Assembly: GCA_016219115.1 (NCBI GenBank)
Contig: JACRCH010000053.1
Span: 7,322-71,321 of the forward strand
Origin: Deltaproteobacteria bacterium
Lineage (GTDB): Bacteria; Desulfobacterota; GWC2-55-46
Length of the DNA stretch: 64,000 bases
Reading direction: 5' to 3'
Shown here: one piece after another, positions 5,000 to 61,899 of the stretch
How positions within the stretch are numbered: the stretch's first letter is position 1
Layout: each line of letters opens with the position of its first letter
Translations under genes and position numbers: made by a program
The notes under the pieces: generated by a model
What the model saw: the letters and a program-made list of their open reading frames with translations, nothing else
Told to the model about the DNA's origin: nothing
Databases searched by the model: none

Positions 5000-6148
5000 T
5001 TAATTCGGCATGAAGAAATTTAAAAGTCTTTCTTTTGTAGCGATCTCGATATCTTCGGGCACCCTCTGTCCGCAGGTCAAAAACGCCACGGGACGGGCCG
5101 CAAGAATGGCCGTGTTTATGACCGGGCCGTAGACGGACCCCTCGTCAAGCTTGGTGAAGGTCAGGGAATCTATGGGGGTCCTGCCGTACCCCATGACCGA
5201 CTCGTAGAGAGAGTCGTCTCTTGTCTGAGCGCTCAGGACGAGGTTGAACCTGATATCCGGGCTTATGCCGGCGATATCGTCAAGCTCCTTCATCTGCACG
5301 GGACTCTTTGCGCTCCTTCCGGCAGTGTCTACGAAGATGTTGTCCTTGTCCCTGTGCACGCCTATGTACGAGGCAAGCTCTTTTGCGGTCCTGGCGACTT
5401 CAACCGGGACGCCTATAATCTTTCCGTAGACCTTCATCTGCTCGGCGGCCCCTATCCTGTAGGTGTCCATCGTGATGAGCGCCACCTTCTTCTTCCTTTT
5501 GAGCGCCTGCATCGCCGCCAGCTTCGCCACGGTAGTGGACTTTCCGACCCCGGCGGGACCGACGAAAGTGATGACCCCCTTTGCCGAGAGCGGGTCCTTT
5601 ACGCCTATCTTCTCAGAGACCCTGTTTCTCATGTAGGCCTTCAGCTGCCCGATGTCCGCGGCCCCTGCTCCGGAGACGGACTTAAAGGCGTTCATGAGGA
5701 CCTTCTGAGCCAGCCGCCTGTCTATGCCGTTATTGGCGAACTCCTCTTCAAGCCTTGTGTATATCTCGGTGGCCGGTATCTTTGACTGCGTGATGAGAAG
5801 CTTCCAGAACTCCTTGAGGTCCTTAAGTTCCTTCAGCTCCTTTTTAAAGGGAACGGCGATCTCTTCCTGCGCGCAGGCGTTCTTCGGATCGGAAAGCTTT
5901 GTGTACCCGGACGCGTTCCGGCCCGAAGGAGCCGGACGGCCCGGGCCATTTCCACCGCCGCCGTAATTGCCGTCGGCGAGGTTAAGGTCTATGGGTCTCG
6001 TCAGGTCATAATCCACCGCGGCGACTACCTCGTAGAGCCCGGTTGCGAGCCTCTTGGTCGAGAGTATCAGGGAGTCGTCCCCGAGCTCTGCCTTTATCGA
6101 GCGCATCGCCTCTTTTACTGATGAGCCTGTGAACTTTTTGATATGCAT
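5000..6148 (-). CDS. flhF: SRP-like GTPase FlhF
   Basis: G1 GPAGVGKSTT, G3 DTAGR and a TKLDE motif, with a Gly/Pro-rich N-terminal linker. Confidence 0.9.
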   Translation of the reverse strand: MHIKKFTGSSVKEAMRSIKAELGDDSLILSTKRLATGLYEVVAAVDYDLTRPIDLNLADGNYGGGGNGPGRPAPSGRNASGYTKLSDPKNACAQEEIAVPFKKELKELKDLKEFWKLLITQSKIPATEIYTRLEEEFANNGIDRRLAQKVLMNAFKSVSGAGAADIGQLKAYMRNRVSEKIGVKDPLSAKGVITFVGPAGVGKSTTVAKLAAMQALKRKKKVALITMDTYRIGAAEQMKVYGKIIGVPVEVARTAKELASYIGVHRDKDNIFVDTAGRSAKSPVQMKELDDIAGISPDIRFNLVLSAQTRDDSLYESVMGYGRTPIDSLTFTKLDEGSVYGPVINTAILAARPVAFLTCGQRVPEDIEIATKERLLNFFMPN

Positions 6149-6149
6149 T

Positions 6150-19596: not shown

Positions 19597-19767
19597 CTCA
19601 TCCTCGGTGTTATTGAGCCAGCGGCCCAAAAAGTCCATGTTCCATTTTTTATACATAAGCACGCCGCGCCCGGCTGAGTTTTCAGCAGGGGCCGCGTTTG
19701 CGGCTAAAATCCTTTGACCGTATCCCGGTTAAAAATTCCCTTCGTCCTCTTCGGCCAAAAGGGCTAT

Positions 19768-19869
19768 GAACATCCCCGCAAGCCTTGCTAGCGTGGTATC
19801 CCGAAGGGATATCTGTTTTTATATACGCGGCAAGCCGCGCATAATTCAACCCGAAGGAAATATTAAAAG
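19768..19869 (+). repeat. repeat family 2 copy in the fliI-fliJ spacer
   Basis: GAACATCCCCGCAAGCCTTGCTAGCGTGG..ATCTGTTTTTATATACGCGGCAAGCCGCGC..CCCGAAGGAAATATTAAAAG. It ends 4 nt from the fliI stop codon. Confidence 0.8.
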
Positions 19870-35313: not shown

Positions 35314-36435
35314 TCAGAGCGCCCGTTTGAAGGCCACTGTGCCAAGAGTGATCGATACCGCAGCGAATACGGCCAGAAATATTATATCACCGTTTACCGC
35401 AGCAAGGTTAGCCCCCTTGAACAGAAGGGCCCTCAAGGCGTGCACCGAATATGTCTCCGGGTTCAACCGCGCGAACCCCTTGAGCCACCACGGGAAACTC
35501 TCCACGGGATAGATGGCGCCGCTGGGGAAAAAGAAGATGACGTTCAGGAAGCCTCCGAGCACGCCGACGATCCTCGGGTGGTTTATCCTCCCCATGATGA
35601 TGAACATCAGGCCCTGGAGTCCCAGTGTCGAAAGCACTATCACGGCGAGCATGAGGACCGCGGTCTCGAAAGTGAGCATCTGCCAGAGGTAAATGCCGGA
35701 GATGAGAGAACTGAGGAAAAGGACCAGCACCGCGAGTATCGTGGTGATGAGAAGCCCGCTTGCCACAAGGCCCATGACGATGTCCGTCCTGGTCAGAGGC
35801 GTCAGGAAATAACTCTCTTCAACGCCAAGGAACCTGTCCATCACGACGTTGAAGGCCCCTGTAGTCATAGCCCCGAGGAATATCGCCATTATCACCACGC
35901 CGGGGATAAGGGTCTGGTCGTAGTCGACCTTCCTGTACAGCTCTATATCGCGGAGATAAGTGACGCTGCGCTCCTCTCTTATGGGGATGAACTCCCTTTT
36001 AAGACCGGGCATCGCGCTTAGAAGCGCGCCTTGAATGGTATTGGACGAAATGCTCTCGGCGTTGTCAAGGAAGAGCCCGAGCTCCGGTCCGGTACTTCTC
36101 ATGATATCACGGCTGAAGTTAGGAGGTATTACAAGGACGGCCTTGTAGACGCCGTCCTTAAGCCCCTCCATGGCCGTGCCCTGGTCAGCGACCCTCACGG
36201 ACTTTATGGTCCTCGGACCGGCCTCGATGGAGCGCAGCAGCTCAAAGACCCTTGTGGCGTACGGCCCCCTGTCAAGGTCTACCACCGCCAGAGAGAGGTT
36301 CTTGAGTTCGCCCTGGAACGAGTTGCCCAGTATCACGAGATAGATGATCGGCATCAGGAGGCTCATCGCCACTACCAGAGGGTTCCTTACGAACTTCCTC
36401 AAGTCCCTTACGAATATTGCGTAAAATCGGGCCAT
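35314..36435 (-). CDS. ABC-2 type transporter permease
   Basis: 373 aa with an N-terminal TM segment, a large loop and five C-terminal TM segments (ABC2_membrane architecture). It is adjacent to the ATPase. Confidence 0.8.
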   Translation of the reverse strand: MARFYAIFVRDLRKFVRNPLVVAMSLLMPIIYLVILGNSFQGELKNLSLAVVDLDRGPYATRVFELLRSIEAGPRTIKSVRVADQGTAMEGLKDGVYKAVLVIPPNFSRDIMRSTGPELGLFLDNAESISSNTIQGALLSAMPGLKREFIPIREERSVTYLRDIELYRKVDYDQTLIPGVVIMAIFLGAMTTGAFNVVMDRFLGVEESYFLTPLTRTDIVMGLVASGLLITTILAVLVLFLSSLISGIYLWQMLTFETAVLMLAVIVLSTLGLQGLMFIIMGRINHPRIVGVLGGFLNVIFFFPSGAIYPVESFPWWLKGFARLNPETYSVHALRALLFKGANLAAVNGDIIFLAVFAAVSITLGTVAFKRAL

Positions 36436-36442
36436 CGGATAC

Positions 36443-37447
36443 CTATCTGCCCCATTTGGTCGGGACCCCGGCGCCGAGCAGAAAGCTCACCTTCTTCGCC
36501 TCCTCTTCCCTTATGGGCCTGCCGGTAAAGTGTATGAAGACGTCTTCGAGCGTCTGCTGCTTCAAGAGCACCCTTGTCAGGTTGCCGCCCATCCTTTTTA
36601 TCCCGTCCACAAGCTCGGGGATGGCGTTGGCTCCGTTGTCGGTAGCCACGATGAGCCTGTCATCCTTTACGACTACCGAATTGACCGCCGGGACGCTAGC
36701 CACCCGTTGAGAAGCCTCTTGAAGGTCGATGTTGCCGACAGTAAGCTCCACGACGTCTTTCTGTGGGATCTGTCTTTTGAGCCCTTCGACGGTGTCGAGG
36801 GCGACTATCTTGCCGTAGTCGATGATGGCGACGTGGTCGCAGAGAGACTCGGCCTCTTCCATGTAATGGGTCGTCAGGAGTATCGTGAGCTTATCCGTCT
36901 TCCTGAAGCTCTCAAGGAGTTCCCAGACCACATGCCTGCTCTGCGGGTCGAGCCCTATGGTCGGCTCGTCGAGTATGAGGATAGATGGTTTGTGGACCAG
37001 CCCTCTTGCTATCTCAAGGCGTCTACGCATCCCGCCGGAGTAGGTGGCCACGAGGTCGCCAGCCCTCTCCCTCAAGCCGACCATCCCGAGAAGCTCGTCG
37101 ATCCTCTCCAGCCTCTCTTTTTTCTCCATCTCGTAGAACCGGGCGTAGATGTCCATTATTTCAAAGCCCGTCAGGTCCAGGTCGCTTGTCATCGCCTGCG
37201 GCACCACCCCTATCCTTTGACGGACATGGGCGCGGTCTTTCACCACATCGAACGAGTTCACGCGGGCGGCGCCCGAAGTCGGCCGTATGAGGGTCGTAAG
37301 AATGCGGATGAGGGTCGTCTTGCCTGCGCCGTTCGGGCCCAGCAGGCCGAAGCAGTCCCCCTCGGGAATGGACAGGGTTACGCTGTCGAGGGCCTTAAGC
37401 TCCCCGTAAGTCTTCGTAAGGTCGACTATGTCTATCGCTGCGGCCAT
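36443..37447 (-). CDS. ABC transporter ATP-binding protein (DrrA-like)
   Basis: Walker A GPNGAGKTT, signature YSGGMRRRLEIA, Walker B ILILDEPT. Confidence 0.9.
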   Translation of the reverse strand: MAAAIDIVDLTKTYGELKALDSVTLSIPEGDCFGLLGPNGAGKTTLIRILTTLIRPTSGAARVNSFDVVKDRAHVRQRIGVVPQAMTSDLDLTGFEIMDIYARFYEMEKKERLERIDELLGMVGLRERAGDLVATYSGGMRRRLEIARGLVHKPSILILDEPTIGLDPQSRHVVWELLESFRKTDKLTILLTTHYMEEAESLCDHVAIIDYGKIVALDTVEGLKRQIPQKDVVELTVGNIDLQEASQRVASVPAVNSVVVKDDRLIVATDNGANAIPELVDGIKRMGGNLTRVLLKQQTLEDVFIHFTGRPIREEEAKKVSFLLGAGVPTKWGR

Positions 37448-37469: not shown

Positions 37470-38540
37470 TCACTTCGACTTCGGAGCGTTTGCGAAGAAG
37501 ACCTTGACCTCTACCGTCATCCTCGGCTTTAAAAAGCCCTCCGGCCTGTTTATTCGAGCCTTGACGCTGAAGGTCCGTATGTCGGATCTTCCCCTTGTGA
37601 CATCCCTCTGAGTGGCGAAACCTCCTGCCTCGCTTATCTCCGTCACCTTGCCATCGAACGCCTTCCCCGGACTTCCTATCGGGTAGACCTCGACCCTGTC
37701 GCCGAGCCTGATCTTTTCTATATCGGTCTCCTCGAGGTCGAACCGCGCCCATAGATTATTCATGTCATCTACCGTATAGACGGCCGCGCCAGGGGTTACG
37801 AACTCCCCGAGCTCAAACGCCTTGTACACGACGACCCCGTCTATGGGCGAAACTATGACGGTGTCTGAAAGCTGAGAGCCGAGGACCTTGAGACGCGCCG
37901 CGGCCTGCTCCTTTTTGGCCGCCGCGAGCGAGATCCGCGCCTTTGCGGCCTTGATGGACAGGAGCGAGTTCTTAAGGTTCGCCTCGCTGCTCTTTTTCCG
38001 GGCAACGGCGGCATCAAGGGCGGCAGCGGCCGCGCCGTAGGATGTCTCGGCGGAGTCCATCTCCTTTTTAGTTATGTAGCTTCCCTTAAAGAGGCCCCTT
38101 GCCCTATCGAGGTTGTCTTTTGTATCCTGAAGGAGCGCGCTGACCCTGCGTACCTCGGCGGCTGCCGCCTCTGTCTCGTACTTCGCGGCCTCGGAGGCGG
38201 CGAAGGAGTTCTCAAGGCTCACCTTCGCCTCGTTTATCGACTCGGAGGCCCCGAGCAGTTCGGCCTTACCCTCCTGCAGCCTTGCCTTTAGCTCGGTCTT
38301 CTCAAGGGCCACCGCCTTTTGGCCGGCCTTGACGATACTGCCTTCGGTACAGCAGAGCCACTCGGTCCTGCCGGCTACCTTGGAGGCGATATTGACCTCG
38401 GTAGCCTCAATAACGCCCGTAGCCCTGATGAAGGAGGCGGTCTCTTTCCTGTTCGAGAGCAAAAGCCTCCAGAAGAGTATTAACGCGATTACGAGCAGGA
38501 TTATGATTACCGGGCGGCGAGCCTTTTCACCCAATGCCAT
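37470..38540 (-). CDS. HlyD-family membrane fusion protein
   Basis: N-terminal TM segment, a long coiled-coil hairpin and a beta-barrel C-terminus (VIVSPIDGVVVYK). Confidence 0.85.
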   Translation of the reverse strand: MALGEKARRPVIIILLVIALILFWRLLLSNRKETASFIRATGVIEATEVNIASKVAGRTEWLCCTEGSIVKAGQKAVALEKTELKARLQEGKAELLGASESINEAKVSLENSFAASEAAKYETEAAAAEVRRVSALLQDTKDNLDRARGLFKGSYITKKEMDSAETSYGAAAAALDAAVARKKSSEANLKNSLLSIKAAKARISLAAAKKEQAAARLKVLGSQLSDTVIVSPIDGVVVYKAFELGEFVTPGAAVYTVDDMNNLWARFDLEETDIEKIRLGDRVEVYPIGSPGKAFDGKVTEISEAGGFATQRDVTRGRSDIRTFSVKARINRPEGFLKPRMTVEVKVFFANAPKSK

Positions 38541-38751: not shown

Positions 38752-38805
38752 ACGGGCGACAGCGTCAAAAAAGCGGGTTCTGGAGCGTGGGTGATGAACC
38801 ACCCC

Positions 38806-38999
38806 GCTAGCCTTGCCAGCGGGGTATCTCCTTAAGCCCAGCCCTCCCTTTATTGCGAGGGCTGGGCTCCCGTTGCGCGAAGCCGATGCAACGGGAAGCG
38901 GGTGGGGGTGAAAACATTTTTTCACCCCTACCCTCCCCCATCGAGGGGGAGGGTTTTTATAAAAAAACCCACTAGCAAGCTACAGGGATTTTAGTGATT
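38806..38999 (+). repeat. repeat family 1 copy (long mosaic hairpin element)
   Basis: GAACCACCCCGCTAGCCTTGCCAGCGGGGTATCTCC, then four internal hairpin modules, then ACTAGCAAGCTACAGGGATTTTAGTGATT. Confidence 0.85.
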
Positions 39000-39077: not shown

Positions 39078-41414
39078 TCAGAGCCTTGTGCCCTTGAGGT
39101 ATCTCATCAGTTCACTCCAGTGCTCATCGGTTATCATCGAATCAGGCGTGACCCAGATCCTCTTCGCCCCTCCCTTGAGAGTGTACCTTAACGCCATGGA
39201 GAAGTTCAGCGGGTCCATCGGCTTATTTTTACCCCAGAGGCCGATTGAGATATAGAAAGAGTCCGGGGCGAAGTTGTCGCTCATATACTTCGCGAGCTTC
39301 TCGGAGACCGTTACCGGGAGGCTCTCCAGGTAGAAATAGTTCCATACGACAATGTTATCGGCGTGCTTAAGGACCCTTTTGTAGTCGAGCCCGGACTCTC
39401 TGCCGTTCCTCGTGAAATCAGACCAGCTCACCGGGACGTCTACATAGAGCTCCTTGCCGTACTTGTGCGCCACGACGGCGGCCTGAGCGATGTACTTTTC
39501 CATAAGCGTGGACCTCCACTCCCAGATGGAAGGGTCGTCCCTGTCGATATTGCCGTCGGGGGTCCTGGGCCAGTCCGCCCTGTTCGTAAAAGCCTTATAG
39601 GACCTCAAGTCCTTTTTATTGTAAGAGTACGAGTAGTACGGCATCTCGGTGAGGTTCACGATGTCCACCTCGTAGTTCTTGCAAAGGTACTCCATCATCT
39701 CCAGGATCAGCCGCCCGTACTCACCCTCGACCACCTCCATGAAGCCGAGCTGCTCGGTATTTATCTTTCCGTCGAAACCGACAGCTCCGGAGCCCGGATG
39801 CTCCTTTATGTATTTTGGGCCGAATATGTCTATGAACGCGGCCACCCTGAAGCCGGATTTGTGGAAGGCGGCGGTGGCCCTCTGGACAAGGTCCTCCCTG
39901 GCGCCCTTCTGGTGGTTCGACCAGTTATCCTCCCTCCCCTTCCACTTGAAATACGCCCACTCGGGCCTTCCGGCGCTCAGGCCGACGACCTTCGCCAGAT
40001 TCACATCCGGCCTCTGCTGGACGTTGGAGATCGTCTTTCTCCAGTCGCCCCATGCGTCGAAATGCGTGGAGAGCCCGAGGTCAAACCGGGAAGCGTACCT
40101 GGGGAGAGAGCTCCTTACGGCGGTCATGTAGTAATATGTCCCGGCGGATGACGCGACCAGTATAAGAAGGCCTATGGCGGCGTACTCCCACCTGGTCCTG
40201 CCGATGACGAAGACCCTTCTCCTTTCTACCTTGTCCCACCTCTCCTCGGCTCCCCTCAACTCCTTGTACCACGAGTAGGCGGCCACGAAATTGTAAAAAT
40301 ACGACAGCGGCAGTATCAGGAGGCCGTAAGGCAGATAGACGAGATCGTAGTAGTCCCCGTCCATGATGATGGACCAGACGGCGATGGTAAAGAAGAAGAA
40401 TACCCCGAGGTATGTCAACAGCTCGACGGTGTCGGTGAAGTAAAGGTGCCCGGTGTAGTAGGCCCACGGTATTATGAACAGGAGCGCTATCTGCAGGAGC
40501 GGAACCACGGCCATGTTTAAAAAATTTATCGGCAGATATATGGAGAACGGCAGGTACCTCGGATTGAAGAAGATGTCCTTATGGAGGAACGCTATCTTTA
40601 TGTAGCTCCTGATCCACCTTATCCTCTGCTTCCATAGCCCCCTGACGGTCCCCGGGCACTCGGCCACCACCTTCGGGTCAGGGTCGAAGATTATCCTTTT
40701 ACCGTGCTTGTAGAGCCTGAAGGTTATCTCTAGGTCCTCGCCCCATATCTCCTTGAAGCCGCCGACCTCCCTTAAGACCCCGGTGCGAACGGCGCCGAGG
40801 TTGCCGGTTATGATCGGCAGACACCTCATAAGAGACAACGCCCTTCTCACGAAACCGGTGCCTATGTGCGTGGTGACGGCGAGGAACTTCTGCACGGCAG
40901 TAGCCGGATGCAGGGGCGAGTCGTTGCCGCAGACGGCGTCCACCGAGCGGTCGCCGAACCACCTGACCATCTTTCTGACGGTATCCGGCAGGAATATGGA
41001 GTCCGCGTCGGTGAAGACGACGACTTCGCCCGTCGCGGCCCCAATGCCTGCGTTCAGGGCGCTGGCCTTGCCGCCGTTGGGTTTGCTGATGTACCTTACG
41101 ACGCCGTCCCTTATAAAGTCCGAGACGGCGGCTTCGGTAGAGTCGGTCGAGCCGTCGTTTATGACTATGACCTCAAGTGACGGGTAATCGGAAGCAAGGA
41201 CGGAAGTGACGGTGCCCCTTATGGTCTTCTCCTCGTTGTAGGCGGGGACCAAAACGGTGACCTTCCCGCTGAAAGGGGCCGTATTTTTGAGGAACCTCCT
41301 CTTCCATACCTCGTAGACGACCGTCAGGGGCAGAAATACCATGCCCTGCATGCCCAGGATGAATATGACGAGTCCGAAGGCGTTGAATACGCTTAGAAGA
41401 GCGAAAATTATCAT
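39078..41414 (-). CDS. processive family-2 glycosyltransferase (PgaC/BcsA-like synthase) fused to a C-terminal glycoside-hydrolase-like (TIM-barrel-like) domain
   Basis: 2 TM segments; VLVPAYNEE, INDGSTDST, FTDADS, GEDLEITFR and QRIRW (QxxRW) motifs; about 5 further TM segments; then a roughly 330-aa soluble domain (..VDIVNLTEMPYYSYSY.., ..ADNIVVWNYFY..). The identity of the C-terminal domain is an inference. Confidence 0.8.
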   Translation of the reverse strand: MIIFALLSVFNAFGLVIFILGMQGMVFLPLTVVYEVWKRRFLKNTAPFSGKVTVLVPAYNEEKTIRGTVTSVLASDYPSLEVIVINDGSTDSTEAAVSDFIRDGVVRYISKPNGGKASALNAGIGAATGEVVVFTDADSIFLPDTVRKMVRWFGDRSVDAVCGNDSPLHPATAVQKFLAVTTHIGTGFVRRALSLMRCLPIITGNLGAVRTGVLREVGGFKEIWGEDLEITFRLYKHGKRIIFDPDPKVVAECPGTVRGLWKQRIRWIRSYIKIAFLHKDIFFNPRYLPFSIYLPINFLNMAVVPLLQIALLFIIPWAYYTGHLYFTDTVELLTYLGVFFFFTIAVWSIIMDGDYYDLVYLPYGLLILPLSYFYNFVAAYSWYKELRGAEERWDKVERRRVFVIGRTRWEYAAIGLLILVASSAGTYYYMTAVRSSLPRYASRFDLGLSTHFDAWGDWRKTISNVQQRPDVNLAKVVGLSAGRPEWAYFKWKGREDNWSNHQKGAREDLVQRATAAFHKSGFRVAAFIDIFGPKYIKEHPGSGAVGFDGKINTEQLGFMEVVEGEYGRLILEMMEYLCKNYEVDIVNLTEMPYYSYSYNKKDLRSYKAFTNRADWPRTPDGNIDRDDPSIWEWRSTLMEKYIAQAAVVAHKYGKELYVDVPVSWSDFTRNGRESGLDYKRVLKHADNIVVWNYFYLESLPVTVSEKLAKYMSDNFAPDSFYISIGLWGKNKPMDPLNFSMALRYTLKGGAKRIWVTPDSMITDEHWSELMRYLKGTRL

Positions 41415-43246
41415 CTGAGGAGTTTGTATATCCTGAAGGCCTCCGCGTACTGGACCCCGGCCTGGATCCCCCGGTGGGCGGCTCTGCCTTTTATGACCTC
41501 GGGGTTCATGTAGTTCTTATCCTCCTGGGTCCTGTGGAAGGTGATGGTCTTCATCTTGTCGCCTATGTACCCTGAGATATCTATGAAGAAATTCGGGACG
41601 AACTCCCTCGGGGTGCTCACGTCCTCGTAGCACAATACCGAGATGTTCCTGGCCGCGACCTTCGTGGCGTCGAATACCGCCCTGTGGTCCGAGTGTATGT
41701 CTATCGCCGTATGCGTCAGGACGATGGTGGCACCGGTCTGCTTTATCTTCTCCTCGACGGCGTCTTTCATCTGCGTCACGCAGTCCTTGAGGCCGGTGTC
41801 CGGGAAGTCGAGGACCCAGAAACCGTTGAGTTCCATGAACTCCGCCGCCTTCCTGAGTTCGTCTTCCCTCTTGCCGTTCGTGTCAGCGCCTTTCTCGCCC
41901 CTGGACATCGTAAGGCCGTAGACGGTGGCGCCGCTGTCCTTGGCCTTCATTATGTAGCCGCCGCACCCGAGCTCGATGTCGTCCGGGTGGGCCCCGACGG
42001 CGAGTATCACGGTCCTGGAGAACTCCTTGGACTGTCTCTCGCCCCACAGGAGCGTCAGGAACGACACCCCGAAGGTAAGGAAAAGCGCGGCCTCGGAGAG
42101 GTCTTCCAGAAAACCGATGTTCAACAGCTCGCCGAAGTAGCTCTCCCCTATGTACGACGCCAGCGTCAGGAGCACTATGGCCGGGAGCACATAGCTTACC
42201 AGGTAGAGGTACGCCCTGTGCTTTCGCTTCAAAATCTTTCTCTTGGTCCTGCTTACGGTCAGGACTATTATAAAGACGATGGCGTAGGCGGTTATCTCGA
42301 AGGCCTCGCTCAGCAGTTTTATTACGGAGTACTTCCCCTCGTTCCTTATGTCCCTGAAGAGCTCAAGCGCCCCGGTGTCAGTGGGGTCTATCCTCATGGC
42401 GGCCTTTACCTCGTCCTCGGCAAGCTTCCTGCTGTCGGTCTTGCGGTAGAGTTTGGCGAGCAGCATGTGGTTTTCAACGCTGTTAGGCTCTATTTCTATG
42501 GCCTTCCTGTATGACTCGGCGGCCTGCTGATAAGCCCTCATCCAGGAATAGACGTCACCCATCGTCCTGTACGCCTCGGCGTAGTTGGGGTGCAGCTCCA
42601 CGGCCTTGTTCAGCGACGCTATCGCCTTCTTGAAGTTCTTCTGCCAGGCCAGGACCGTCCCCATGTCCTTGTGTAGCTCGGAGTCGTCCGGATAGTGGAC
42701 TATCGCTCTGTCCAGGACCTCTACGGCCTTTGAGAGGTCCCCGGTCATCGAGTAGGTCTTTCCGAGCCCCTTGAGGGCCTCGTGGTTCTCCGGGTCGGCC
42801 CGAAGGACCTCCTTGTAGAGCCTCTCTGCCTCGTCGTACCTGTGCGACCACCTCAGGACGACGGCAAGGCCGTTTAAGAGGCTTCCGTTCTTCGGGTCAA
42901 GCTCAAGGGCGTCCCTGTAGGTGACGACAGCCCTGTCGTAGTTTCCGGTCCACGAGTAAAGCTCGGCGAGATGGCCCCTGGCGTTTATGTCCCTGGGGTC
43001 AAGCTCCACCACTTTCTTGTATCGGTCTATCGCTTCGGTGAAGTTCTTGAGTTTTACGTAGGACTCGGCGAGGTCTTTAAGGGCCGGGGTGTAGCTCGGG
43101 TTTAAAGAAGCGGAGTCGTGCAGCAGCACCTCCGCCTCTTTCGCCCTGCCCTGGTCTAAAAGCGCGTGACCTTCCTTGTAAAGGTCTATGTAGGTGGCCT
43201 GCAGCAGATAGGCCCCGACCAGTATCGAAAACAATGAAACCTCCAC
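41411..43246 (-). CDS. TPR-repeat / 3-TM / PIG-L (LmbE) family deacetylase fusion protein
   Basis: N-terminal hydrophobic segment, about 8 TPRs, a TM block with the basic loop SRTKRKILKRKHR, and a C-terminal PIG-L domain (AVGAHPDDIELGCGG, IHSDH). The tracked start is GTG inside a repeat remnant, so the start is uncertain. The stop overlaps the GT2 start by 4 nt. Confidence 0.8.
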   Translation of the reverse strand: MEVSLFSILVGAYLLQATYIDLYKEGHALLDQGRAKEAEVLLHDSASLNPSYTPALKDLAESYVKLKNFTEAIDRYKKVVELDPRDINARGHLAELYSWTGNYDRAVVTYRDALELDPKNGSLLNGLAVVLRWSHRYDEAERLYKEVLRADPENHEALKGLGKTYSMTGDLSKAVEVLDRAIVHYPDDSELHKDMGTVLAWQKNFKKAIASLNKAVELHPNYAEAYRTMGDVYSWMRAYQQAAESYRKAIEIEPNSVENHMLLAKLYRKTDSRKLAEDEVKAAMRIDPTDTGALELFRDIRNEGKYSVIKLLSEAFEITAYAIVFIIVLTVSRTKRKILKRKHRAYLYLVSYVLPAIVLLTLASYIGESYFGELLNIGFLEDLSEAALFLTFGVSFLTLLWGERQSKEFSRTVILAVGAHPDDIELGCGGYIMKAKDSGATVYGLTMSRGEKGADTNGKREDELRKAAEFMELNGFWVLDFPDTGLKDCVTQMKDAVEEKIKQTGATIVLTHTAIDIHSDHRAVFDATKVAARNISVLCYEDVSTPREFVPNFFIDISGYIGDKMKTITFHRTQEDKNYMNPEVIKGRAAHRGIQAGVQYAEAFRIYKLLR

Positions 43247-43334
43247 CGCAAGCCCATTGGCCAGCGGGGTATCCGTAGGCTAATTCCCCAAAACTCCACG
43301 AAAAGCCCCGGCGGTTTAAACGCTTGAGAAAAAT

Positions 43335-43424
43335 GAACCACCCCGCAAGCCTTGCTAGCGGGGTATCTCCTACCCTCCCCCTCGATGGGGGAGGGTTTTA
43401 CAAGGGCAAGCTACAGGGAATTCC
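43335..43424 (+). repeat. repeat family 1, short variant
   Basis: GAACCACCCCGCAAGCCTTGCTAGCGGGGTATCTCC + CCCTCCCCCTCGATGGGGGAGGG + CAAGCTACAGGGAATT. It lacks three internal modules and ends 4 nt from the stop of the beta-barrel gene. A further partial 5' module lies at about 43248-43280. Confidence 0.8.
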
Positions 43425-43427
43425 AAG

Positions 43428-44741
43428 TTAAAACCCCAAGCCCGTCTTGTATGCGACCGTTAAGAAGACCGTGTCGTCGTTGGCAGTCGGCAGGTCTATG
43501 TGTTTTAAGCCGAAGCCGAGGTCGGTCTTGTTGTCGAGCTTGTAGAATACGGAGCCGAGATAGACATTGGCGGTCTTGCCGGCCTGCGAGCTCTTCGATG
43601 AGTACTTGTCATGGACATAGTCGAGCCTTCCCGTGACCCTGTCCGTAAAGTCGTATCCGAAGCCCGCCAGGACCGACCAGCTGTAGCTCCTGTCAAGGTC
43701 CCTGTTCGGCAGGTATTTAAGCTCGGCGCTGTACTTGCCCCTGACCACCTCAGCGCCTCCGCCAAGAAGCGACTGGGTCTTGTACTTGACGCTGGTGGCG
43801 GCGGCCGTGGTGCCGACAGGCATGTTCAGGCCCCTGCCCTTTATCGTGGTCTTGTTCGGGTCCGGGTCCCTCAATACGGCGTAGAGCACCTTGAGTCTCA
43901 GGCCGTCTATCGGGGTTACGTAGTAAGCTTCAGCCGATACCTTGTGGTTGTTGGCCTTTGAGGCAGTGTCAAAGAGAAACGACGGCCTGAAGAACTCGTA
44001 TGCGAGAGTGCCCCTGAATACCGGGGTGAACCAGTGAGCCACCTCGACCTCGAAAGACGGGACCTTGTCGTAGGCGCTGGAGTCCGGCTGCACGGTCGGT
44101 CCAGTAGGGTAGTTGTAGTCCTTGTACGCCACGCCGAGCTTGGCGTAAGAGTTGTTGCTGTAGAAGTAGTAGCCGTTGGCGTATGCCTTGTGCCTTGAGT
44201 AGTAGGCGTTCTTGGAGTAGCTGTAGCCGCCGTTTAGCAGCGTCCTGTCGAAGCCGCCGTACTCGAGCATGCCCTCGTACTTCTCTTTCGTATTGTCGGC
44301 TTCCCATCCGCCGGCCATGAGGTTCAGCGTCAGGCCCCGTTTAAGGCTCAGGCTCTCAAGGTCGTCTTTGGCCTCCTGGTCCTTCGGGTTTAGCTTGAGG
44401 GCCTTATTGTAGGCCTCGGCCGCGTCCCTGTCCCTCTTCATCCATTTGTACGTGGTGCCCATGCTTTTAAGAAGCTCGGGGTTCTCTCCGCCGAGACTCT
44501 TCGCTATCTCGTACTCGGTAAGGGCGTCGTTGAGTTTCCCCTCCCTCCTGTAGGCGTCGCCGAGGAGCTGATGGTTCCTTGCGTTTTTGGGTTCCGCCGT
44601 GATGAGCTTCCTCAATATCTCCTCGGCCTTCGAGTACTGGCCGGAGTCGAGGAGCTTTTCGGCTTCACCGGCGGAGCTCTGTGCGTTTGCCGCCCCGGTG
44701 AACAGGAACAGAACAAGAATCAGAACGTTAAAAAGATACAT
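43428..44741 (-). CDS. outer-membrane TPR + beta-barrel protein (PgaA/BcsC/PelB-like export porin candidate)
   Basis: Signal peptide (..FTGAANAQ), about 3 TPRs, then alternating beta-strand sequence ending in the aromatic terminus ..TVAYKTGLGF. Confidence 0.7.
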   Translation of the reverse strand: MYLFNVLILVLFLFTGAANAQSSAGEAEKLLDSGQYSKAEEILRKLITAEPKNARNHQLLGDAYRREGKLNDALTEYEIAKSLGGENPELLKSMGTTYKWMKRDRDAAEAYNKALKLNPKDQEAKDDLESLSLKRGLTLNLMAGGWEADNTKEKYEGMLEYGGFDRTLLNGGYSYSKNAYYSRHKAYANGYYFYSNNSYAKLGVAYKDYNYPTGPTVQPDSSAYDKVPSFEVEVAHWFTPVFRGTLAYEFFRPSFLFDTASKANNHKVSAEAYYVTPIDGLRLKVLYAVLRDPDPNKTTIKGRGLNMPVGTTAAATSVKYKTQSLLGGGAEVVRGKYSAELKYLPNRDLDRSYSWSVLAGFGYDFTDRVTGRLDYVHDKYSSKSSQAGKTANVYLGSVFYKLDNKTDLGFGLKHIDLPTANDDTVFLTVAYKTGLGF

Positions 44742-45611
44742 TTACGCAATCCTCCTTTTCCATGAGTTCATTAGACCGTCGAGCACTTCCTCTGCGAAGA
44801 GCGAATTGCCGCCGAGCCTCGCGTTGATCTCAAGGAGCGCCGGCTCTCCGTTATTTCTCAGCCTTATATCGAAATCAAGCGGTCCTTCGAGGCCCAAAAG
44901 CCTCGAAGCCCTTTTGCAAATCTCTATTATATCGTCTTTTTTTACCCTTTCAACCCCGAGGGCGTTGCCGACGATGCCTTCCTTGAGAATGGTCTTTTTC
45001 AAGGCGACGGCAGCTTTCGGTTCACCACCTTTGTCTATGAAAAGGTTCACGTCAAACTCGTCCCCTGGCACGAACTCCTGGAAGATGAGCCCCTCTCTCT
45101 TCTCCGAATAGACCTCTTCGGCGCTCCTGTAGACTACCACCCCGCGCCCGCCCCTGCCGAAGTTAGGCTTTGCCAGCAGCGGGAGGCCCAGTTCCTTTAT
45201 CACAAGCTCACGGGGGCTCTTCCCGTTGAATGTGACCGGCACGGATATGCCGTTTTTCTTCATGAACTCGGCCGTCCTGAACTTGTCGTTGGCTATATCC
45301 ACGGCCTCCGGCGGAGAAATATAGACCAGGCAGCCGAGCCCTTCGATCTCACCTTTAAGCCTGGCAACGGCAGAAAGCTCTTCAGTGACAGTCGGAATGA
45401 AGAGTGAAGGGCGTTCTTTTTTTATAATATCGAGCAGGGCCGGCTGATAAGCCGGACCCGTTGCCATAGGCACGATATGGAAAGTATCGGCCTTGAGGTC
45501 TACCTCCCTCACATCGGTGCCTGTGATGGTGGCTCCCTTGCCCTTGAAATAGGTCAATGCGCTCTTTCCGGCAGGCCCGCCTATGCCGGTTATAAGGATC
45601 TGATTTCCCAT
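44742..45611 (-). CDS. ATP-grasp domain ligase
   Basis: Rossmann-like N-terminus (ILITGIGGPAG), an ATP-grasp core (PLLAKPNFGRGGRGV, IFQEFVPGDEF, LLEINARLGG). The stop abuts the start of the beta-barrel gene. The ATG at 45611 is preferred over the tracked TTG at 45665. Confidence 0.8.
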   Translation of the reverse strand: MGNQILITGIGGPAGKSALTYFKGKGATITGTDVREVDLKADTFHIVPMATGPAYQPALLDIIKKERPSLFIPTVTEELSAVARLKGEIEGLGCLVYISPPEAVDIANDKFRTAEFMKKNGISVPVTFNGKSPRELVIKELGLPLLAKPNFGRGGRGVVVYRSAEEVYSEKREGLIFQEFVPGDEFDVNLFIDKGGEPKAAVALKKTILKEGIVGNALGVERVKKDDIIEICKRASRLLGLEGPLDFDIRLRNNGEPALLEINARLGGNSLFAEEVLDGLMNSWKRRIA

Positions 45612-45741
45612 TTTAGTTTTTATCGTGTCCCGCTGACTTAACCCATTAGAAAAACAATAAAACAACCCACATTAAAATATGATTAGAAAGACCGCTTCGC
45701 ACGCATCTTTTCTATCGTAAGACCCCGAAAAGGCTTAAATT

Positions 45742-45845: not shown

Positions 45846-45980
45846 TCTTCAACTCATACAATAATGAAGGGATCTCTTTCATGGCTGAAAAGCAGAGTTG
45901 AAAGATACTGAAGAATATATCACTTGAATTTGATATTTTTCTGTGATTATTGCTACAAATGGAACCACCGGGGTATTAAT

Positions 45981-46080
45981 GAACCACCCCACAAGCCAGG
46001 CTCCGGGGTTTCCGTTGGGGAATCTGTTTTTATATACGCGGCAAGCCGCGCTTAATTAAACCCGAAGGAAATATTAAAAA
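45981..46080 (+). repeat. repeat family 2 copy
   Basis: GAACCACCCCACAAGCCAGGCTCCGGGGTTTCCGTTGGGGAATCTGTTTTTATATACGCGGCAAGCCGCGCTTAATTAAACCCGAAGGAAATATTAAAAA. It is preceded by a collapsed 5' module at 45962-45976. Confidence 0.85.
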
Positions 46081-46090
46081 ACCTTAACCG

Positions 46091-46522
46091 CTAATCATCC
46101 GTCTTTTTCGCGTTTACTACGACCAACCCGCTTATCTCCATCGAGCCTTCCATAGCCCCCTGGATGGAAGCCAGGTCCCACTGCCCCCCGTCTGCCCTCC
46201 AGACCCCGTTCATGACGAGAGTATCGCCGTCCCTGAACATGTCAAGGGGCGGTTTTTTGAGCCTGTATCTGGGGATGAGAATAAGGCTTGAAAAACTCAT
46301 GTCGCAGGACTTTACGGGTTTGCATGTGACGGCGAACCAGTACTCCATGGTCTTGTCGACCTTCTTCTCGCCTTCCCTGGCATGTATGTGGGTTATGGCG
46401 CCCGCCGGTTTCTCTATCTCCCTTGAACCCTCCGAGCCGTCGATGACTGTCCCTATTATGACATTGGTGCCGTCCCCGGTATCAAAGCCCCTCGGCTCGC
46501 CGACTTCTATCTTTATCTTCAT
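46091..46522 (-). CDS. hypothetical protein, 143 aa
   Basis: Clean ORF with no domain I can recognise and no TM segments. Confidence 0.5.
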   Translation of the reverse strand: MKIKIEVGEPRGFDTGDGTNVIIGTVIDGSEGSREIEKPAGAITHIHAREGEKKVDKTMEYWFAVTCKPVKSCDMSFSSLILIPRYRLKKPPLDMFRDGDTLVMNGVWRADGGQWDLASIQGAMEGSMEISGLVVVNAKKTDD

Positions 46523-46780: not shown

Positions 46781-46854
46781 TGGAGCGGGTGAAGGGAATC
46801 GAACCCTCGTCTAAAGCTTGGGAAGCTTTCATTCTACCATTGAACTACACCCGC
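46781..46854 (-). tRNA. tRNA-Gly (anticodon CCC), CCA encoded
   Basis: Hand-folded cloverleaf: acceptor GCGGGTG/CACCCGC, D arm GTTC-AATGGTA-GAAT, anticodon arm AAAGC-TTCCCAA-GCTTT, T arm GAGGG-TTCGATT-CCCTT, 3' TCCA. Total 74 nt. Confidence 0.9.
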
Positions 46855-47198: not shown

Positions 47199-49346
47199 TC
47201 AGTCACTTAACTCTCTCTGGAAAGTCATCATCTCAGACGGCTTCCATCTTTCCATGAACTGTTCGACCTCCTGCGCGCTTGATGGTTTCATGAGCAGGTA
47301 CCCCTGTATATAGTCACATCCAAGCTTCTTAAGTATTTTGAGCTGTTCCACGGTCTCAACACCTTCGGCTACTATTCCTATACCGAGGCTGTGGGCCAGG
47401 GAGATGATAGCGGTTGTTATAGCGATATCGTCTTTATCTGCGGGTATGTCGCGGATGAAGGACCGGTCTATCTTGATGATGTCTATGGGCATTGATTTGA
47501 GGTATGAGAGCGATGAGAACCCGGTCCCGAAGTCATCGATGGATAGCCTGATCCCCAACGCCTTAAGATCCCTTAGTATCTTGACCGTATGCTCCGCGTC
47601 GGTCATGATGATGCTCTCCGTAAGCTCGATCTCCAGGTACTCCGGAGGCAAACCGGTTTTTTTCAATATACCGGCAATTGTGTCCACAAAATCCTTCTCC
47701 TTGAACTGGCGCATCGAGATGTTGACCGAAAATCTGATATTCTTCAATCCGTTAAGCCGCCGGGCATTGGCCTGAGCGCAGGCAGTCGTGAGCACCCAGG
47801 ATGTGATGGGTACGATAAGGCCGGTCTCCTCGGCAATCGGGATGAACCTGCCGGGAGGTATGAGCTCGGTTTCCGGGTCCTGCCAGCGGATAAGACACTC
47901 CAGTCCGACAATCTCTCCGGTGAAAACGTCGGCCTGCGGCTGATAATAAAGGACGAACTCGTTCAGCTCAAGGGCCTTATGGAGCTTGTACTCGAGTCTC
48001 AGCCAGTCTTTTCTTCTCAGGTCGAGCGAGGAATTGTACATCTTGCTGTTATTCCTTCCCTCTTCCTTTGCCAAATACATCGCCATATCGGCCTTTTTGA
48101 AAAGATCTTCCACGCTGTCTCCATCACCGGGGAAGATGCTTACCCCAATGCTTGTCGTTACGAAGAGCTCATGCCCTTTTATCGTGAATGGCGCGTCAAA
48201 GCAGGCGAGGATCCTGTTCGTAATGTTTACTACATTGTCATCCTTTGACAGGTCCGGCAGCAGCACTATGAACTCGTCGCCTCCGAGACGGGCCACGGTA
48301 CTTTCAATGACAGGGTGTTCGTGCTTGCCTTTTTCAAGTGGGCGAGCCACTATGTCGGATAGTCTGAGACTCTGCCGGAGCTTGTTCGCAATGATCTTCA
48401 GAAGCTCATCCCCCGCTTCGTGCCCCAGTGTGTCGTTGACGAACTTGAAGTGGTCAAGGTCTAGAAATAGCACCGCCACATGTCTTCCGTTACGCGCGGC
48501 GCGGGCAAACGCCTGGTCAGCGCGGTCCCTGAGAAGAAGCCTGTTAGGCAGCCCCGTGAGGGCGTCGTAATAGGCCATGGTGAAAATCGTCAGTTCATCC
48601 TCCTTGAGCCTTGTGACGTCGTCTATGACTACGAGCGCCTGTTTGTCGGCGCCAGCTTCCGAGGACTGGATCAAGGTCACACTCGCCTGCAGGTACCTCG
48701 TCTTCTCACCCTCCTTAAGTTCAAAAGCAAGCCCGTTTTTAGCTTCCCCTGTCTCGAATACCTTCTCGACGGCCCTGTTGAAGCCCTCTGCCCGCACGGT
48801 CTCCTCTATCTTTCTTCCGACTATATCGCTTGTGCTCAGGATTCTGTAAGACGAAGTATTGGCATATAGCGCAAGGTGCTCCTTCGAAACGACGATGATA
48901 CTTGACGAGACGCTCTGTATGATGTCTTCGGTGTGCTGTTTCAGAGCGACCTTTTCAATGAGGGCTTTGTGAAGGATCTCCCGCTCCAAGGCCTCCTGTT
49001 TGAGCCTGGCTTCTGTCTGAAGGTTTCTGGAGACAACCGTTACAACCCAATAGTACAGGAAAGGCGCGCTTATTACCGAAAGGAGCAGAGAGTCTGCAAG
49101 GTACTTCACGACCCCTTCATTGAGATTCAGGGCGAACAAGAAGACCATCACCAAGAACTCAGAGGTGACTATTACGAACAGTATCTTGAAAAAGAGCATG
49201 TACGGTTTTATCTTGCGTCCGTCGCCCTCTTTCCGTAGCTGTTCATGAGAACCGCTGACAGAGCTTTTTTCGTTTTGCATTGTGGTGGTGTCTGCTGTTT
49301 GGTTATCCGCGGTGGGTAGGCGCCCATGTACGGTACTGAACGCCAT
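47199..49346 (-). CDS. membrane-anchored PAS-GGDEF-EAL protein (c-di-GMP turnover)
   Basis: 2 TM segments at the N-terminus, a PAS-like region, a GGDEF domain ([11 protein letters not shown]) and an EAL domain ([20 protein letters not shown]). The gene and its flanks are visibly more AT-rich than the rest of the window. Confidence 0.9.
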
Positions 49347-51339: not shown

Positions 51340-51682
51340 AGCTTGAGGGGCCCTGACGTACAGGTACTCCGGGAGGTCACTGAAAAGATCAAATGGCCGT
51401 CAAAAGCGAACGCAATGAAGCAGTCTCTTCCTTCGGGAAATCACCTGCCCGGCAGGCCGCTTCGTCGAAAAAATCGCTTTTCGCAGTGACGATCGACGAT
51501 TTATTTAGAAACCTTCTGAAAAACAGTCCCCTCCGGCTAAGGACCCGTCTGTTCCGAGTCTTGATGAACCCTCCCTGTGCTTAAAACCCCAGGGTTTTCA
51601 GAACCTTAAAAATAAAAAAATCTGGAAATTTGAAAGTTAGGCTGTTACTTTGAGAATGTTTTTGGTATAATCCGCGGCAATC

Positions 51683-51782
51683 GAACCACCCCGCAAGCCT
51701 TGCTATCGGGATTTCCGTTGGGAAATCTGTTTTATATACGCGGCAAGCCGCGTGGTATTCAACCCGAAGGAAATATTAAAAG
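51683..51782 (+). repeat. repeat family 2 copy
   Basis: GAACCACCCCGCAAGCCTTGCTATCGGGATTTCCGTTGGGAAATCTGTTTTATATACGCGGCAAGCCGCGTGGTATTCAACCCGAAGGAAATATTAAAAG. Confidence 0.85.
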
Positions 51783-61678: not shown

Positions 61679-61692
61679 ATAAATCTCTTTAT

Positions 61693-61899
61693 GAACCACC
61701 CCGCGAGCCTTGCTCCGGGGTGTCTCCTTAAGCCCAGCCCTCCCTTGATGGGAGGGCTGGGCTCCCGTTGCGCTCTTCCGATGCAACGGGAAGCGGTGGG
61801 GGTGAAAACCTGTTTTCACCCCCACCCTACCCTCCCCCTCGATGGGGGAGGGTTTTTATAAGGAAACCCTGCTGGCAAGCTACAGGGAATTTTGTGATT
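61693..61899 (+). repeat. repeat family 1 copy (reference copy); its 3' end overlaps the fabD stop codon
   Basis: GAACCACCCCGCGAGCCTTGCTCCGGGGTGTCTCC / GCCCAGCCCTCCCTTGATGGGAGGGCTGGGC / CCCGTTGCGCTCTTCCGATGCAACGGG / GGGGGTGAAAACCTGTTTTCACCCCC / CCCTCCCCCTCGATGGGGGAGGG / CCCTGCTGGCAAGCTACAGGGAATTTTGTGATT. Confidence 0.9.

Follow-up and report, generated by a model that had tools for sequence, protein, structure and literature searches.

A conserved four-gene locus of a deltaproteobacterial genome as a candidate synthase-dependent hexosamine-polymer system with a PIG-L deacetylase and an ATP-grasp ligase

We analyzed a locus of four co-directional genes at positions 39078–45665 of a window, i.e., the whole 64,000-nucleotide (nt) stretch of DNA under study, from the genome of a Deltaproteobacteria bacterium (GCA_016219115.1, contig JACRCH010000053.1, positions 7,322–71,321); all coordinates below are those of the window. 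The genes encode, in this order, an ATP-grasp ligase, an exported protein with TPR repeats and a putative beta-barrel, a protein combining TPR repeats, three transmembrane helices, and a PIG-L/LmbE-type de-N-acetylase domain, and a family-2 glycosyltransferase (GT2) fused to a C-terminal TIM barrel. We propose, with a probability of roughly 55%, that the locus is a complete synthase-dependent system exporting a hexosamine-based polymer, most likely of the N-acetylglucosamine (GlcNAc) type, across both membranes, and that it belongs to a conserved, apparently undescribed family. The parts of this reading differ in strength: the locus very probably represents a distinct synthase-dependent polymer system, a GlcNAc-based polymer is reasonably probable, and deacetylation followed by re-acylation, suggested by analogy, is plausible but tentative.

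All four open reading frames (ORFs) are located on the minus strand. The ATP-grasp gene (44742–45611) begins with ATG and corresponds to the NCBI protein P0390 of 289 amino acids (aa); the locus end at 45665, given earlier, belongs to a TTG-extended ORF of the same gene. It is followed by the genes of the 437-aa exported protein (43428–44741), the 611-aa TPR–PIG-L protein (41411–43246, GTG start; called by NCBI as a 607-aa protein starting at 43234, P0121), and the 778-aa GT2 fusion (39078–41414). The first two genes abut at 44741/44742, the last two overlap by 4 nt (41411–41414), and a 181-nt intergenic spacer with two hairpin repeat units (43247–43427), which lies outside the conserved system, separates the second gene from the third. 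Pfam domains ATP-grasp_3, TPR, PIG-L, and Glycos_transf_2 were all found in the predicted proteins. The arrangement proposed in the initial annotation, with the ATP-grasp ligase encoded first and tight junctions everywhere except at the spacer, was thus confirmed by the ORFs and the Pfam domains.

The N-terminal transmembrane helix and the GT-A catalytic domain of the synthase are encoded at 40575–41414 (minus strand) and are those of a processive family-2 glycosyltransferase (Glycos_transf_2, 120 bits). The residues D87, D136xD138, G225-E226-D227, and Q263-R-x-R-W267 (QRIRW in this protein) were invariant among 33 homologues with 50–80% identity. The AlphaFold2 model of the fusion protein (mean confidence score, pLDDT, of 87.8) contained the N-terminal transmembrane helix, the GT-A domain, and the QxxRW interface helix, followed by hydrophobic helices 290–320, 329–352, and 355–387, a disordered basic linker (388–409), and a last transmembrane helix (410–435); the membrane region, including the linker and the last helix, is encoded at 40110–40547 (minus strand). 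The top Foldseek match of the model was PcManGT, a minimal, synthase-like enzyme; Chlorella virus hyaluronan synthase (7sp7, E-value of 5e-17, ~505 columns, membrane part included) and BcsA (4p00/5ej1, 1e-14) were also retrieved. Since the D, DxD, (T/G)ED, and QxxRW motifs are invariant and the model, whose GT-A domain is seated on a transmembrane channel and interface helices, could be aligned to synthases of both hyaluronan and cellulose, the protein can be placed, as far as the model allows, among membrane-embedded processive synthases of the BcsA, hyaluronan synthase, chitin synthase, PgaC, and NodC type. It was predicted as a processive GT2 with QxxRW from the outset, and that prediction held. 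It does not qualify as a PgaC equivalog: PgaC_IcaA (TIGR03937) was its best NCBIfam match with 143.5 bits, under the cut-off of 422.3, and NodC (59 bits) and CelA (51 bits) scored lower.

The C-terminal part of the synthase (residues 440–778; 39081–40097, minus strand) was modeled by AlphaFold2 as a (beta/alpha)8-like TIM barrel with pLDDT mostly >90. The initial annotation described the protein as a synthase–hydrolase fusion; the fused fold was supported by the model, and for the hydrolase part only a sub-threshold match was obtained (GHL10, PF02638, 18.6–20.6 bits, under the gathering threshold of 27.9 bits). Across the family, weak Pfam matches to GHL10 (13 of 47 members, best E-value of 2e-6), GHL6, and DUF4015 recurred; on these matches, the relation to GHL10 appears to be at the clan level only. 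Neither the full alignment nor an alignment of the 47 domains retrieved a significant relative of the C-terminal domain in profile searches of PDB, and Foldseek with the full-length model returned GT2 matches only. As in glycoside hydrolases, acidic residues (D529 and E590) occur at the C-terminal ends of strands of the barrel; their conservation is complete or almost complete. The domain is best described as a TIM barrel, predicted to be exported, of an unassigned glycoside-hydrolase-like family with a putative hydrolase role.

The family is small: only 174 clusters at 50% identity were found among 1.84 billion cluster representatives searched. Many of its members are stand-alone proteins of 360–420 aa, and those sampled carried Sec, Tat, lipoprotein, or signal-anchor N-termini (e.g., RRQLL...LVGLA, ...LTAC, ...LAGC, and ...GSSAC); therefore, the family is predicted to be extracytoplasmic. 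The unfused GT2 proteins encoded beside stand-alone TIM barrels end in '...WNKLERTGVISRR', which is the basic linker of the fusion, so the last transmembrane helix of the fusion most probably represents a former signal peptide and the TIM barrel would be periplasmic. Charge counts agree with this topology (7.9 lysine plus arginine residues in the linker vs. 2.6 after the last helix), and the Herminiimonas homologue carries the signal-anchor 'RRRLMLGGAAVAGMAAAG'.

The TPR–PIG-L protein begins with a short signal-like hydrophobic segment and ~8 TPR repeats (42368–43246, minus strand; TPR_1 and TPR_2, 144 bits in Pfam), predicted to be periplasmic. Three transmembrane helices (42032–42298, minus strand; residues 287–330, 340–362, and 373–399 of the model) join this part to a PIG-L/LmbE-type metal-dependent de-N-acetylase domain (41414–42010, minus strand), predicted to be cytoplasmic. 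The AlphaFold2 model of the protein contained a TPR superhelix of helix pairs (residues 31–282, pLDDT >90), the three transmembrane helices, and a Rossmann-like PIG-L fold. PF02585 matched residues 415–531 with 88.6 bits, above the cut-off of 28.2, and the AHPDDxE and HxDH motifs (H416-P-D-D419, E421, and H514/D516/H517) were invariant in 32 homologues. We failed to find a carbohydrate esterase family 4 (CE4) domain in any of the four operon proteins with Pfam or NCBIfam. The deacetylase is thus of the PIG-L/LmbE and not of the CE4 type, as was initially claimed.

The opposite location of the two parts, also claimed at the start, was supported by the homologues. Clear signal peptides of the Sec type are seen at the start of distant homologues, and, as a mean of 32 homologues, loop 1 (after the first transmembrane helix) contains 5.3 lysine plus arginine and 0 aspartate plus glutamate residues, and the net charge of loop 2 is −2.4; for these reasons, the TPR part is predicted to be outside, in the periplasm, and the PIG-L domain inside, in the cytoplasm. 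The three-helix module was retained in homologues without the TPR part, and TPR-less homologues with three (Herminiimonas, L064, L067) or one transmembrane helix (Stakelama, L068) had the same polarity.

Foldseek with the whole model of this protein was dominated by TPR matches; relatives of the PIG-L domain were taken from a sequence search of PDB with the domain alone. They were TT1542 (3.5e-16), archaeal diacetylchitobiose deacetylase (2.4e-11), and BshB (8.5e-8), which are cytoplasmic enzymes acting on small GlcNAc glycosides. The best curated match of the domain was the BshB1 model (TIGR04001) with 80.9 bits, under its cut-off of 182.5.

The ATP-grasp protein matched ATP-grasp_3 with 60.6 bits (cut-off of 23.2) and PylC-like_N with 29 bits in Pfam, and the E-x-N Mg/ATP motif was present in its translation (LLEINARLGG). 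Its best NCBIfam match, PRK12767 ('CPSase-like'), reached 142 bits, under the cut-off of 218. The relatives found in PDB were 2pn1 (function unknown), the L-amino-acid ligase 3vot, and RimK. No signal peptide was found in the 289-aa protein, and it is therefore predicted to be cytoplasmic.

A de-N-acetylase of the PIG-L/LmbE type exposing a glucosamine amine, which is then acylated, is also the chemistry of mycothiol and bacillithiol biosynthesis (MshB/MshC and BshB/BshC), and all characterized PIG-L/ligase pairs are generally known to make small molecules such as these two. The PIG-L and ATP-grasp proteins might then make a separate small metabolite, a thiol-like or aminoglycoside-like glycoside, and be linked to the polysaccharide synthase only in the genome; BshB1 as the best curated match of the domain agrees with this. 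We consider such an explanation very improbable. Three transmembrane helices fuse the PIG-L domain physically to the periplasmic TPR scaffold on the export route, the linkage to GT2 and the TIM barrel extends over more than eight phyla and three gene orders, and BshB1 scores only 81 bits against a cut-off of 182. Moreover, the thiol pathways use a family-4 glycosyltransferase (GT4) making a single glycoside and ligases that are Cys-tRNA-synthetase-like or of the BshC type, not ATP-grasp, and involve neither a polymer nor export; no GT4 (MshA/BshA-like) gene and no BshC/MshC-like gene or other Cys ligase was found in the cassette. The PIG-L enzyme of eukaryotic glycosylphosphatidylinositol-anchor biosynthesis is likewise anchored in the membrane by a transmembrane segment, and its catalytic domain faces the cytoplasm.

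The second gene encodes a protein with a signal peptide (residues 1–20), ~3 TPR repeats (~22–130; Pfam matches at 27–124), and a C-terminal part of ~300 aa (~136–437) that ends in ...YKTGLGF. A signal peptide was present in 12 of 12 aligned homologues, some of which wholly lack the TPR part. Within the C-terminal part, the motifs GGWExDYTK, PNPDSN, LRDPDP, and NRDLDNSY were conserved, aromatic residues amounted to 15.6%, cysteine was absent, and the last residue was phenylalanine (...GLGF). Beta-type amphipathic periodicity exceeded the alpha type in 62% of the windows here vs. 30% in the TPR part. We failed to find a match to these ~300 aa in Pfam or PDB, and a PDB profile search with the porin family gave TPR proteins only. 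PgaA models (TIGR03939, 15.5 bits, cut-off of 366; NF007468, 17.2 bits, cut-off of 1043) and BcsC models of NCBIfam (15–17 bits) matched TPR residues only. Of the initially annotated TPR and beta-barrel, the former was identified by Pfam, and the latter, an outer-membrane beta-barrel, is likely from the sequence features listed above.

One genome per species was scanned, the genes being located by tblastn with the window proteins, and 56 loci were obtained, 55 of which belong to the family. Among the 46 species-representative loci with enough flank, 45 carried the ATP-grasp, PIG-L, and GT2 fusion genes together, and the combination is therefore far beyond chance; a lack of co-occurrence, which would have spoken against a common system, was not seen. 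The order found in the window (ATP-grasp, barrel, TPR–PIG-L, GT2) was canonical and occurred in 34 loci, and one locus (WOR-3) had all four genes in another order. In 10 loci, the PIG-L and ATP-grasp genes preceded the GT2 gene in this order, except in locus L060; a TPR-barrel protein with a signal peptide was also encoded there, on the same strand and downstream, with the same exception. Nine further loci were cut by contig ends, and one incomplete locus was located at a contig end. Three metagenomic neighborhoods (GT2 identity of 50–59%) showed the same gene order as the window.

The carriers belong to Thermodesulfobacteriota, 'Deltaproteobacteria', Nitrospirae, Myxococcota (Anaeromyxobacter, Myxococcales), Acidobacteriota (including Vicinamibacteria), Aminicenantes, WOR-3, Bacteroidota, Burkholderiales, Sideroxydans, Nitrosomonadales, and Sphingomonadales. 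Cultured carriers are Herminiimonas aquatilis CCUG 36956, Collimonas antrihumi DSM 104040, Glaciimonas soli GS1, Stakelama marina LXI357, and Oxalobacteraceae CAVE-383.

In the neighborhoods of stand-alone TIM barrels, a split form of the cassette was found, consisting of a three-helix PIG-L protein, an ATP-grasp protein, an unfused GT2 (411–467 aa), and an exported TIM barrel with a signal peptide. Neither TPR nor porin genes were found in the flanks of the split-form cassettes, which were present on metagenomic contigs and in the cultured actinobacterium Arthrobacter sp. StoSoilB13 (L070, 3698–7957; NZ_AP024649.1, ~816.6–820.9 kb). In the latter, the cassette is located on a replicon of ~1.0 Mb recorded as a 'plasmid', and the PLSDB gene table contains no feature at the site. 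Since a form without TPR and porin exists, the conserved core, as read from the sequences, is PIG-L, ATP-grasp, GT2, and the TIM barrel; the TPR and porin parts look like additions for export across the outer membrane, much as pga relates to ica. No fifth conserved gene was revealed by clustering of the flanking ORFs. A gene of ~220 aa without a Pfam match follows the synthase gene in L001 (10532–11191) and L005 (10403–11083); it was not general and was rejected as a component, and in the window the corresponding 538-nt gap holds repeat copies only. As side observations, an ORF resembling an extracytoplasmic-function sigma factor is located just upstream of the Arthrobacter cassette, and a sigma-70_r2/r4 gene follows the cassette in L064 and L065. 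In L068, two tandem exported TIM-barrel paralogues of 410 and 365 aa (5772–8098) follow the GT2 gene, which is apparently split into gene calls of 293 and 126 aa.

An inner-membrane synthase together with a periplasmic TPR scaffold, the general hallmark of synthase-dependent systems, was found in the locus according to Pfam, homologues, models, and charge counts. Among the known systems, PgaABCD/IcaADBC, producing poly-N-acetylglucosamine (PNAG), is closely similar: it comprises an inner-membrane processive GT2 (PgaC/IcaA being the nearest curated family), a de-N-acetylase, an extracytoplasmic glycoside-hydrolase-like TIM barrel, and a TPR and beta-barrel exporter, and it likewise has diderm and monoderm versions, the latter without a porin. 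The locus could accordingly be a divergent machine of this type, producing poly-GlcNAc that is partly de-N-acetylated and cationic, with PIG-L replacing CE4 and the ATP-grasp protein serving as an accessory or regulatory component without re-acylation; the set of synthase, deacetylase, TIM barrel, and TPR-porin mirrors PgaC, PgaB-N, PgaB-C, and PgaA. However, the deacetylase of the cassette is a PIG-L/LmbE protein anchored by three helices and predicted to be cytoplasmic, where a finished polymer would be inaccessible, whereas that of Pga is a periplasmic CE4 enzyme. The TIM barrel is fused to the synthase and is not of glycoside hydrolase family 153 (GH153), while the GH153 barrel of Pga is fused to the deacetylase; the main TPR array is carried by the inner-membrane deacetylase protein. 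The ATP-grasp gene is obligatory; its conservation is no less strict than that of the other three modules, and it is retained in the minimal split form as well. All Pga models remained far under their cut-offs, and neither PgaD nor a PgaB-like CE4 plus GH153 protein was matched by any operon protein; since the operon genes abut, there is no room for an extra gene such as PgaD. On this evidence, a PNAG-type product without re-acylation is unlikely.

With the Pel, Bcs, and alginate systems, the locus shares the general plan of a synthase, a periplasmic TPR scaffold, an outer-membrane barrel (putative in the locus), and a periplasmic polymer-processing enzyme (represented here by the candidate TIM barrel). 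In contrast to these systems, which modify the polymer in the periplasm, it has two enzymes predicted to be on the cytoplasmic side, and its synthase is a GT2, whereas PelF is a GT4. Moreover, unlike in Pel, Bcs, and Alg, no PilZ, PelD, or Alg44-type receptor of cyclic di-GMP (c-di-GMP) and no co-polymerase was detected: domain-level searches of the four proteins with Pfam and NCBIfam gave no PilZ, PelD, PgaD, or MshEN match at E ≤ 0.01, a cryptic site aside, in line with the initial annotation. NfrA/NfrB, responsible for the phage N4 receptor polysaccharide of E. coli, is a minimal system of a GT2 with a fused extra domain and a TPR-barrel outer-membrane protein. The extra domain of NfrB, however, is a cytoplasmic MshEN c-di-GMP sensor and not a periplasmic TIM barrel, and PIG-L and ATP-grasp proteins are absent from NfrAB.

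The initial annotation did not recognize the gene combination as a described system, and neither did our searches. Curated Pfam and NCBIfam models of PgaC, PgaA, BcsA, BcsC, NodC, and BshB1 gave only sub-threshold matches; the domains themselves were confirmed, and every family-specific pathway model remained under its cut-off. A full-text literature search, which left most subscription journals aside, found no description of an exopolysaccharide system with GT2, PIG-L/LmbE, and ATP-grasp. Assignment to an already characterized pathway was rejected on these two grounds. A survey of biofilm operons mentions GT–CE4 fusions and nothing like the present cassette (PMC7112194).

The preferred explanation, a synthase-dependent system for a hexosamine-based polymer, may operate as follows. 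The GT2 would polymerize the sugar on the cytoplasmic face and thread the chain through its own membrane channel; the fused periplasmic TIM barrel would bind or trim the emerging chain, similarly to PgaB-C, PelA-N, BcsZ, or AlgL; the TPR arrays of the PIG-L and barrel proteins would bridge the periplasm; and the beta-barrel would let the polymer out. The PIG-L domain, held at the membrane by three helices and probably docked to the synthase, would deacetylate a GlcNAc unit before it enters the channel, this unit being a nucleotide-sugar donor, a primer, or a lipid-linked GlcNAc; docking of the three-helix module in the manner of PgaD is speculation by analogy. The ATP-grasp ligase would then re-acylate the freed amine with an ATP-activated carboxylate, and the exported polymer would carry N-acyl or N-aminoacyl glucosamine residues. 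Because the substrates of PIG-L enzymes are small GlcNAc glycosides or glycolipids and a finished chain cannot be reached from the cytoplasm, the pair is expected to edit the precursor GlcNAc unit before translocation. The acyl donor would most likely be an amino acid; L-amino-acid ligases and RimK are among the relatives of the ATP-grasp protein. The same two steps, removal of an acetyl group and subsequent N-acylation, underlie MshB/MshC, BshB/BshC, NodB/NodA, LpxC/LpxD, and TunE/TunC.

We also envisage, as a bolder and rather doubtful extension, a new class of glycopolymer, i.e., an aminoacylated (peptide-decorated) poly-hexosamine made by a synthase-tethered cytoplasmic deacetylase–ligase pair; the pathway would be conserved across lineages ranging from Actinomycetota to Proteobacteria, and diderms would have gained parts for export through the outer membrane. 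If true, editing of the building block ahead of translocation, instead of in the periplasm, would be seen for the first time in a synthase-dependent pathway. A precedent for polysaccharides decorated with amino acids is glycine on the Vibrio cholerae polysaccharide VPS; such precedents belong to Wzx/Wzy pathways and involve different enzymes (PMC13463779).

Directly downstream of the synthase gene, the window encodes an HlyD-type adaptor (37470–38540), an ABC ATPase (36443–37447), and an ABC-2 permease (35314–36435), all on the minus strand. This set was syntenic in close relatives only (L008, L011, L013, L027, and L034), and it was rejected as a core component for this reason. Weaker ABC ATPase matches adjoin the cassette in Vicinamibacteria (L019), Terracidiphilus (L039), and L068, and an ABC-2-like permease was found in L019 and L068. 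The HlyD/ABC/ABC-2 neighbors recall NodIJ, and the NodC/NodB/NodA/NodIJ logic, as generally known, is a close formal analogue of the cassette: after a processive-family GT2 has acted, a GlcNAc unit is de-N-acetylated in the cytoplasm and the freed amine is N-acylated. The product of the GT2 might thus be a short oligomer of GlcNAc, or GlcNAc linked to a lipid, that is kept on the cytoplasmic face and whose terminal GlcNAc is deacetylated and then acylated to give a signal or a surface glycolipid; export would be separate, e.g., via the adjacent HlyD/ABC-2 transporter. ABC-type ATPase genes near the cassette in several other lineages, the minimal synthase-like PcManGT as the top Foldseek match, and the action of PIG-L relatives on small glycosides and glycolipids (with the founding PIG-L generally known as a membrane-anchored enzyme of the cytoplasmic face) are in agreement with this possibility. 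Nevertheless, we find it improbable, as regards both the product and the separate export route: the periplasmic TIM barrel always accompanies the GT2, the periplasmic TPR array and the exported barrel protein argue for polymer passage, the membrane region aligns with through-channel synthases, and the synteny of the transporter is restricted as described. In addition, the Nod system employs a CE4 enzyme (NodB) and an acyl-ACP transferase (NodA), releases its pentamer in the cytoplasm, and lacks TPR, porin, and periplasmic TIM-barrel proteins.

Several points weigh against a polymer made from a deacetylated and re-acylated unit. No member of the cassette family has a known product, activity, or phenotype. 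In a processive synthase, the chain end passes straight from the active site into the channel and cannot easily be reached by a cytoplasmic enzyme, so that the substrate must be a precursor or a primer; to our knowledge, UDP-GlcNAc is not a substrate of any PIG-L enzyme. A bulkier N-acyl group would need to fit into the active site of the GT2. As AlphaFold2 predicted three hydrophobic helices between the GT domain and the basic linker, it is ambiguous how many times this stretch crosses the membrane. The c-di-GMP receptors and co-polymerases of Pga, Bcs, Pel, and Alg have no detected counterpart in the four proteins, and the putative functions of the beta-barrel and the hydrolase derive from sequence features and a fold model.

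Well-understood synthase-dependent systems are few (cellulose, alginate, PNAG, Pel, and some others), and they are the base of most thinking on the biofilm matrix. The cassette apparently adds another system to these, spread broadly over the phylogeny and frequent in lineages of soil, sediment, and groundwater, most of which are uncultured. The logic of its components differs from that of the known systems: a membrane-tethered deacetylase predicted to be cytoplasmic, an obligatory ATP-grasp protein, and an exported TIM barrel fused or adjacent to the synthase. If the proposed chemistry is true, both the matrix polymer and the way in which it is modified would be of a new kind, and three unannotated protein families would gain functions. 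The cultured carriers, including Arthrobacter sp. StoSoilB13, make the system directly testable.

Upstream of the operon, an ORF of 143 aa without Pfam or NCBIfam matches (46091–46522), a tRNA-Gly (CCC) gene (46781–46854), and a gene encoding a PAS-GGDEF-EAL protein (47199–49346) follow one another on the minus strand. The 143-aa ORF occupies the same position in four related metagenome-assembled genomes (L008, L013, L027, and L034) with ~47% identity. Genes related to the GGDEF-EAL gene were found near the cassette in a few other loci only (L014, L043, and L060), and it was rejected as a part of the system since it is not conserved with the cassette; a link to c-di-GMP via this neighbor is possible all the same. 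Neither a c-di-GMP riboswitch nor another RNA element was matched by Rfam in the 480-nt leader, and a scan for promoters and terminators yielded nothing beyond chance that would define the transcription unit.

The repeat in the spacer at 43247–43427, reported in the initial annotation, was present, and it proved to be one copy of a dispersed intergenic hairpin element. Other genomes lack the element at this junction, their PIG-L and barrel genes abutting or overlapping. Six matches to the element (0 expected) were found on the minus strand of the window, at 19765–19784, 38793–38812, 43332–43351, 45978–45997, 51680–51699, and 61690–61709; with a further degenerate copy near 43250–43290, the window contains 6–7 copies overall. 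Each consists of a variable GC-rich hairpin followed by a conserved hairpin and tail, ACCCCGCTAGCAAGGCTTGCGGGGTGGTTCAT, and no match to it was found in Rfam. All copies are co-directional with the genes; they flank the operon and split it between the second and third genes. The element could be REP-like (a repetitive extragenic palindrome) or MITE-like (a miniature inverted-repeat transposable element), or it could serve as a signal for RNA processing or attenuation.

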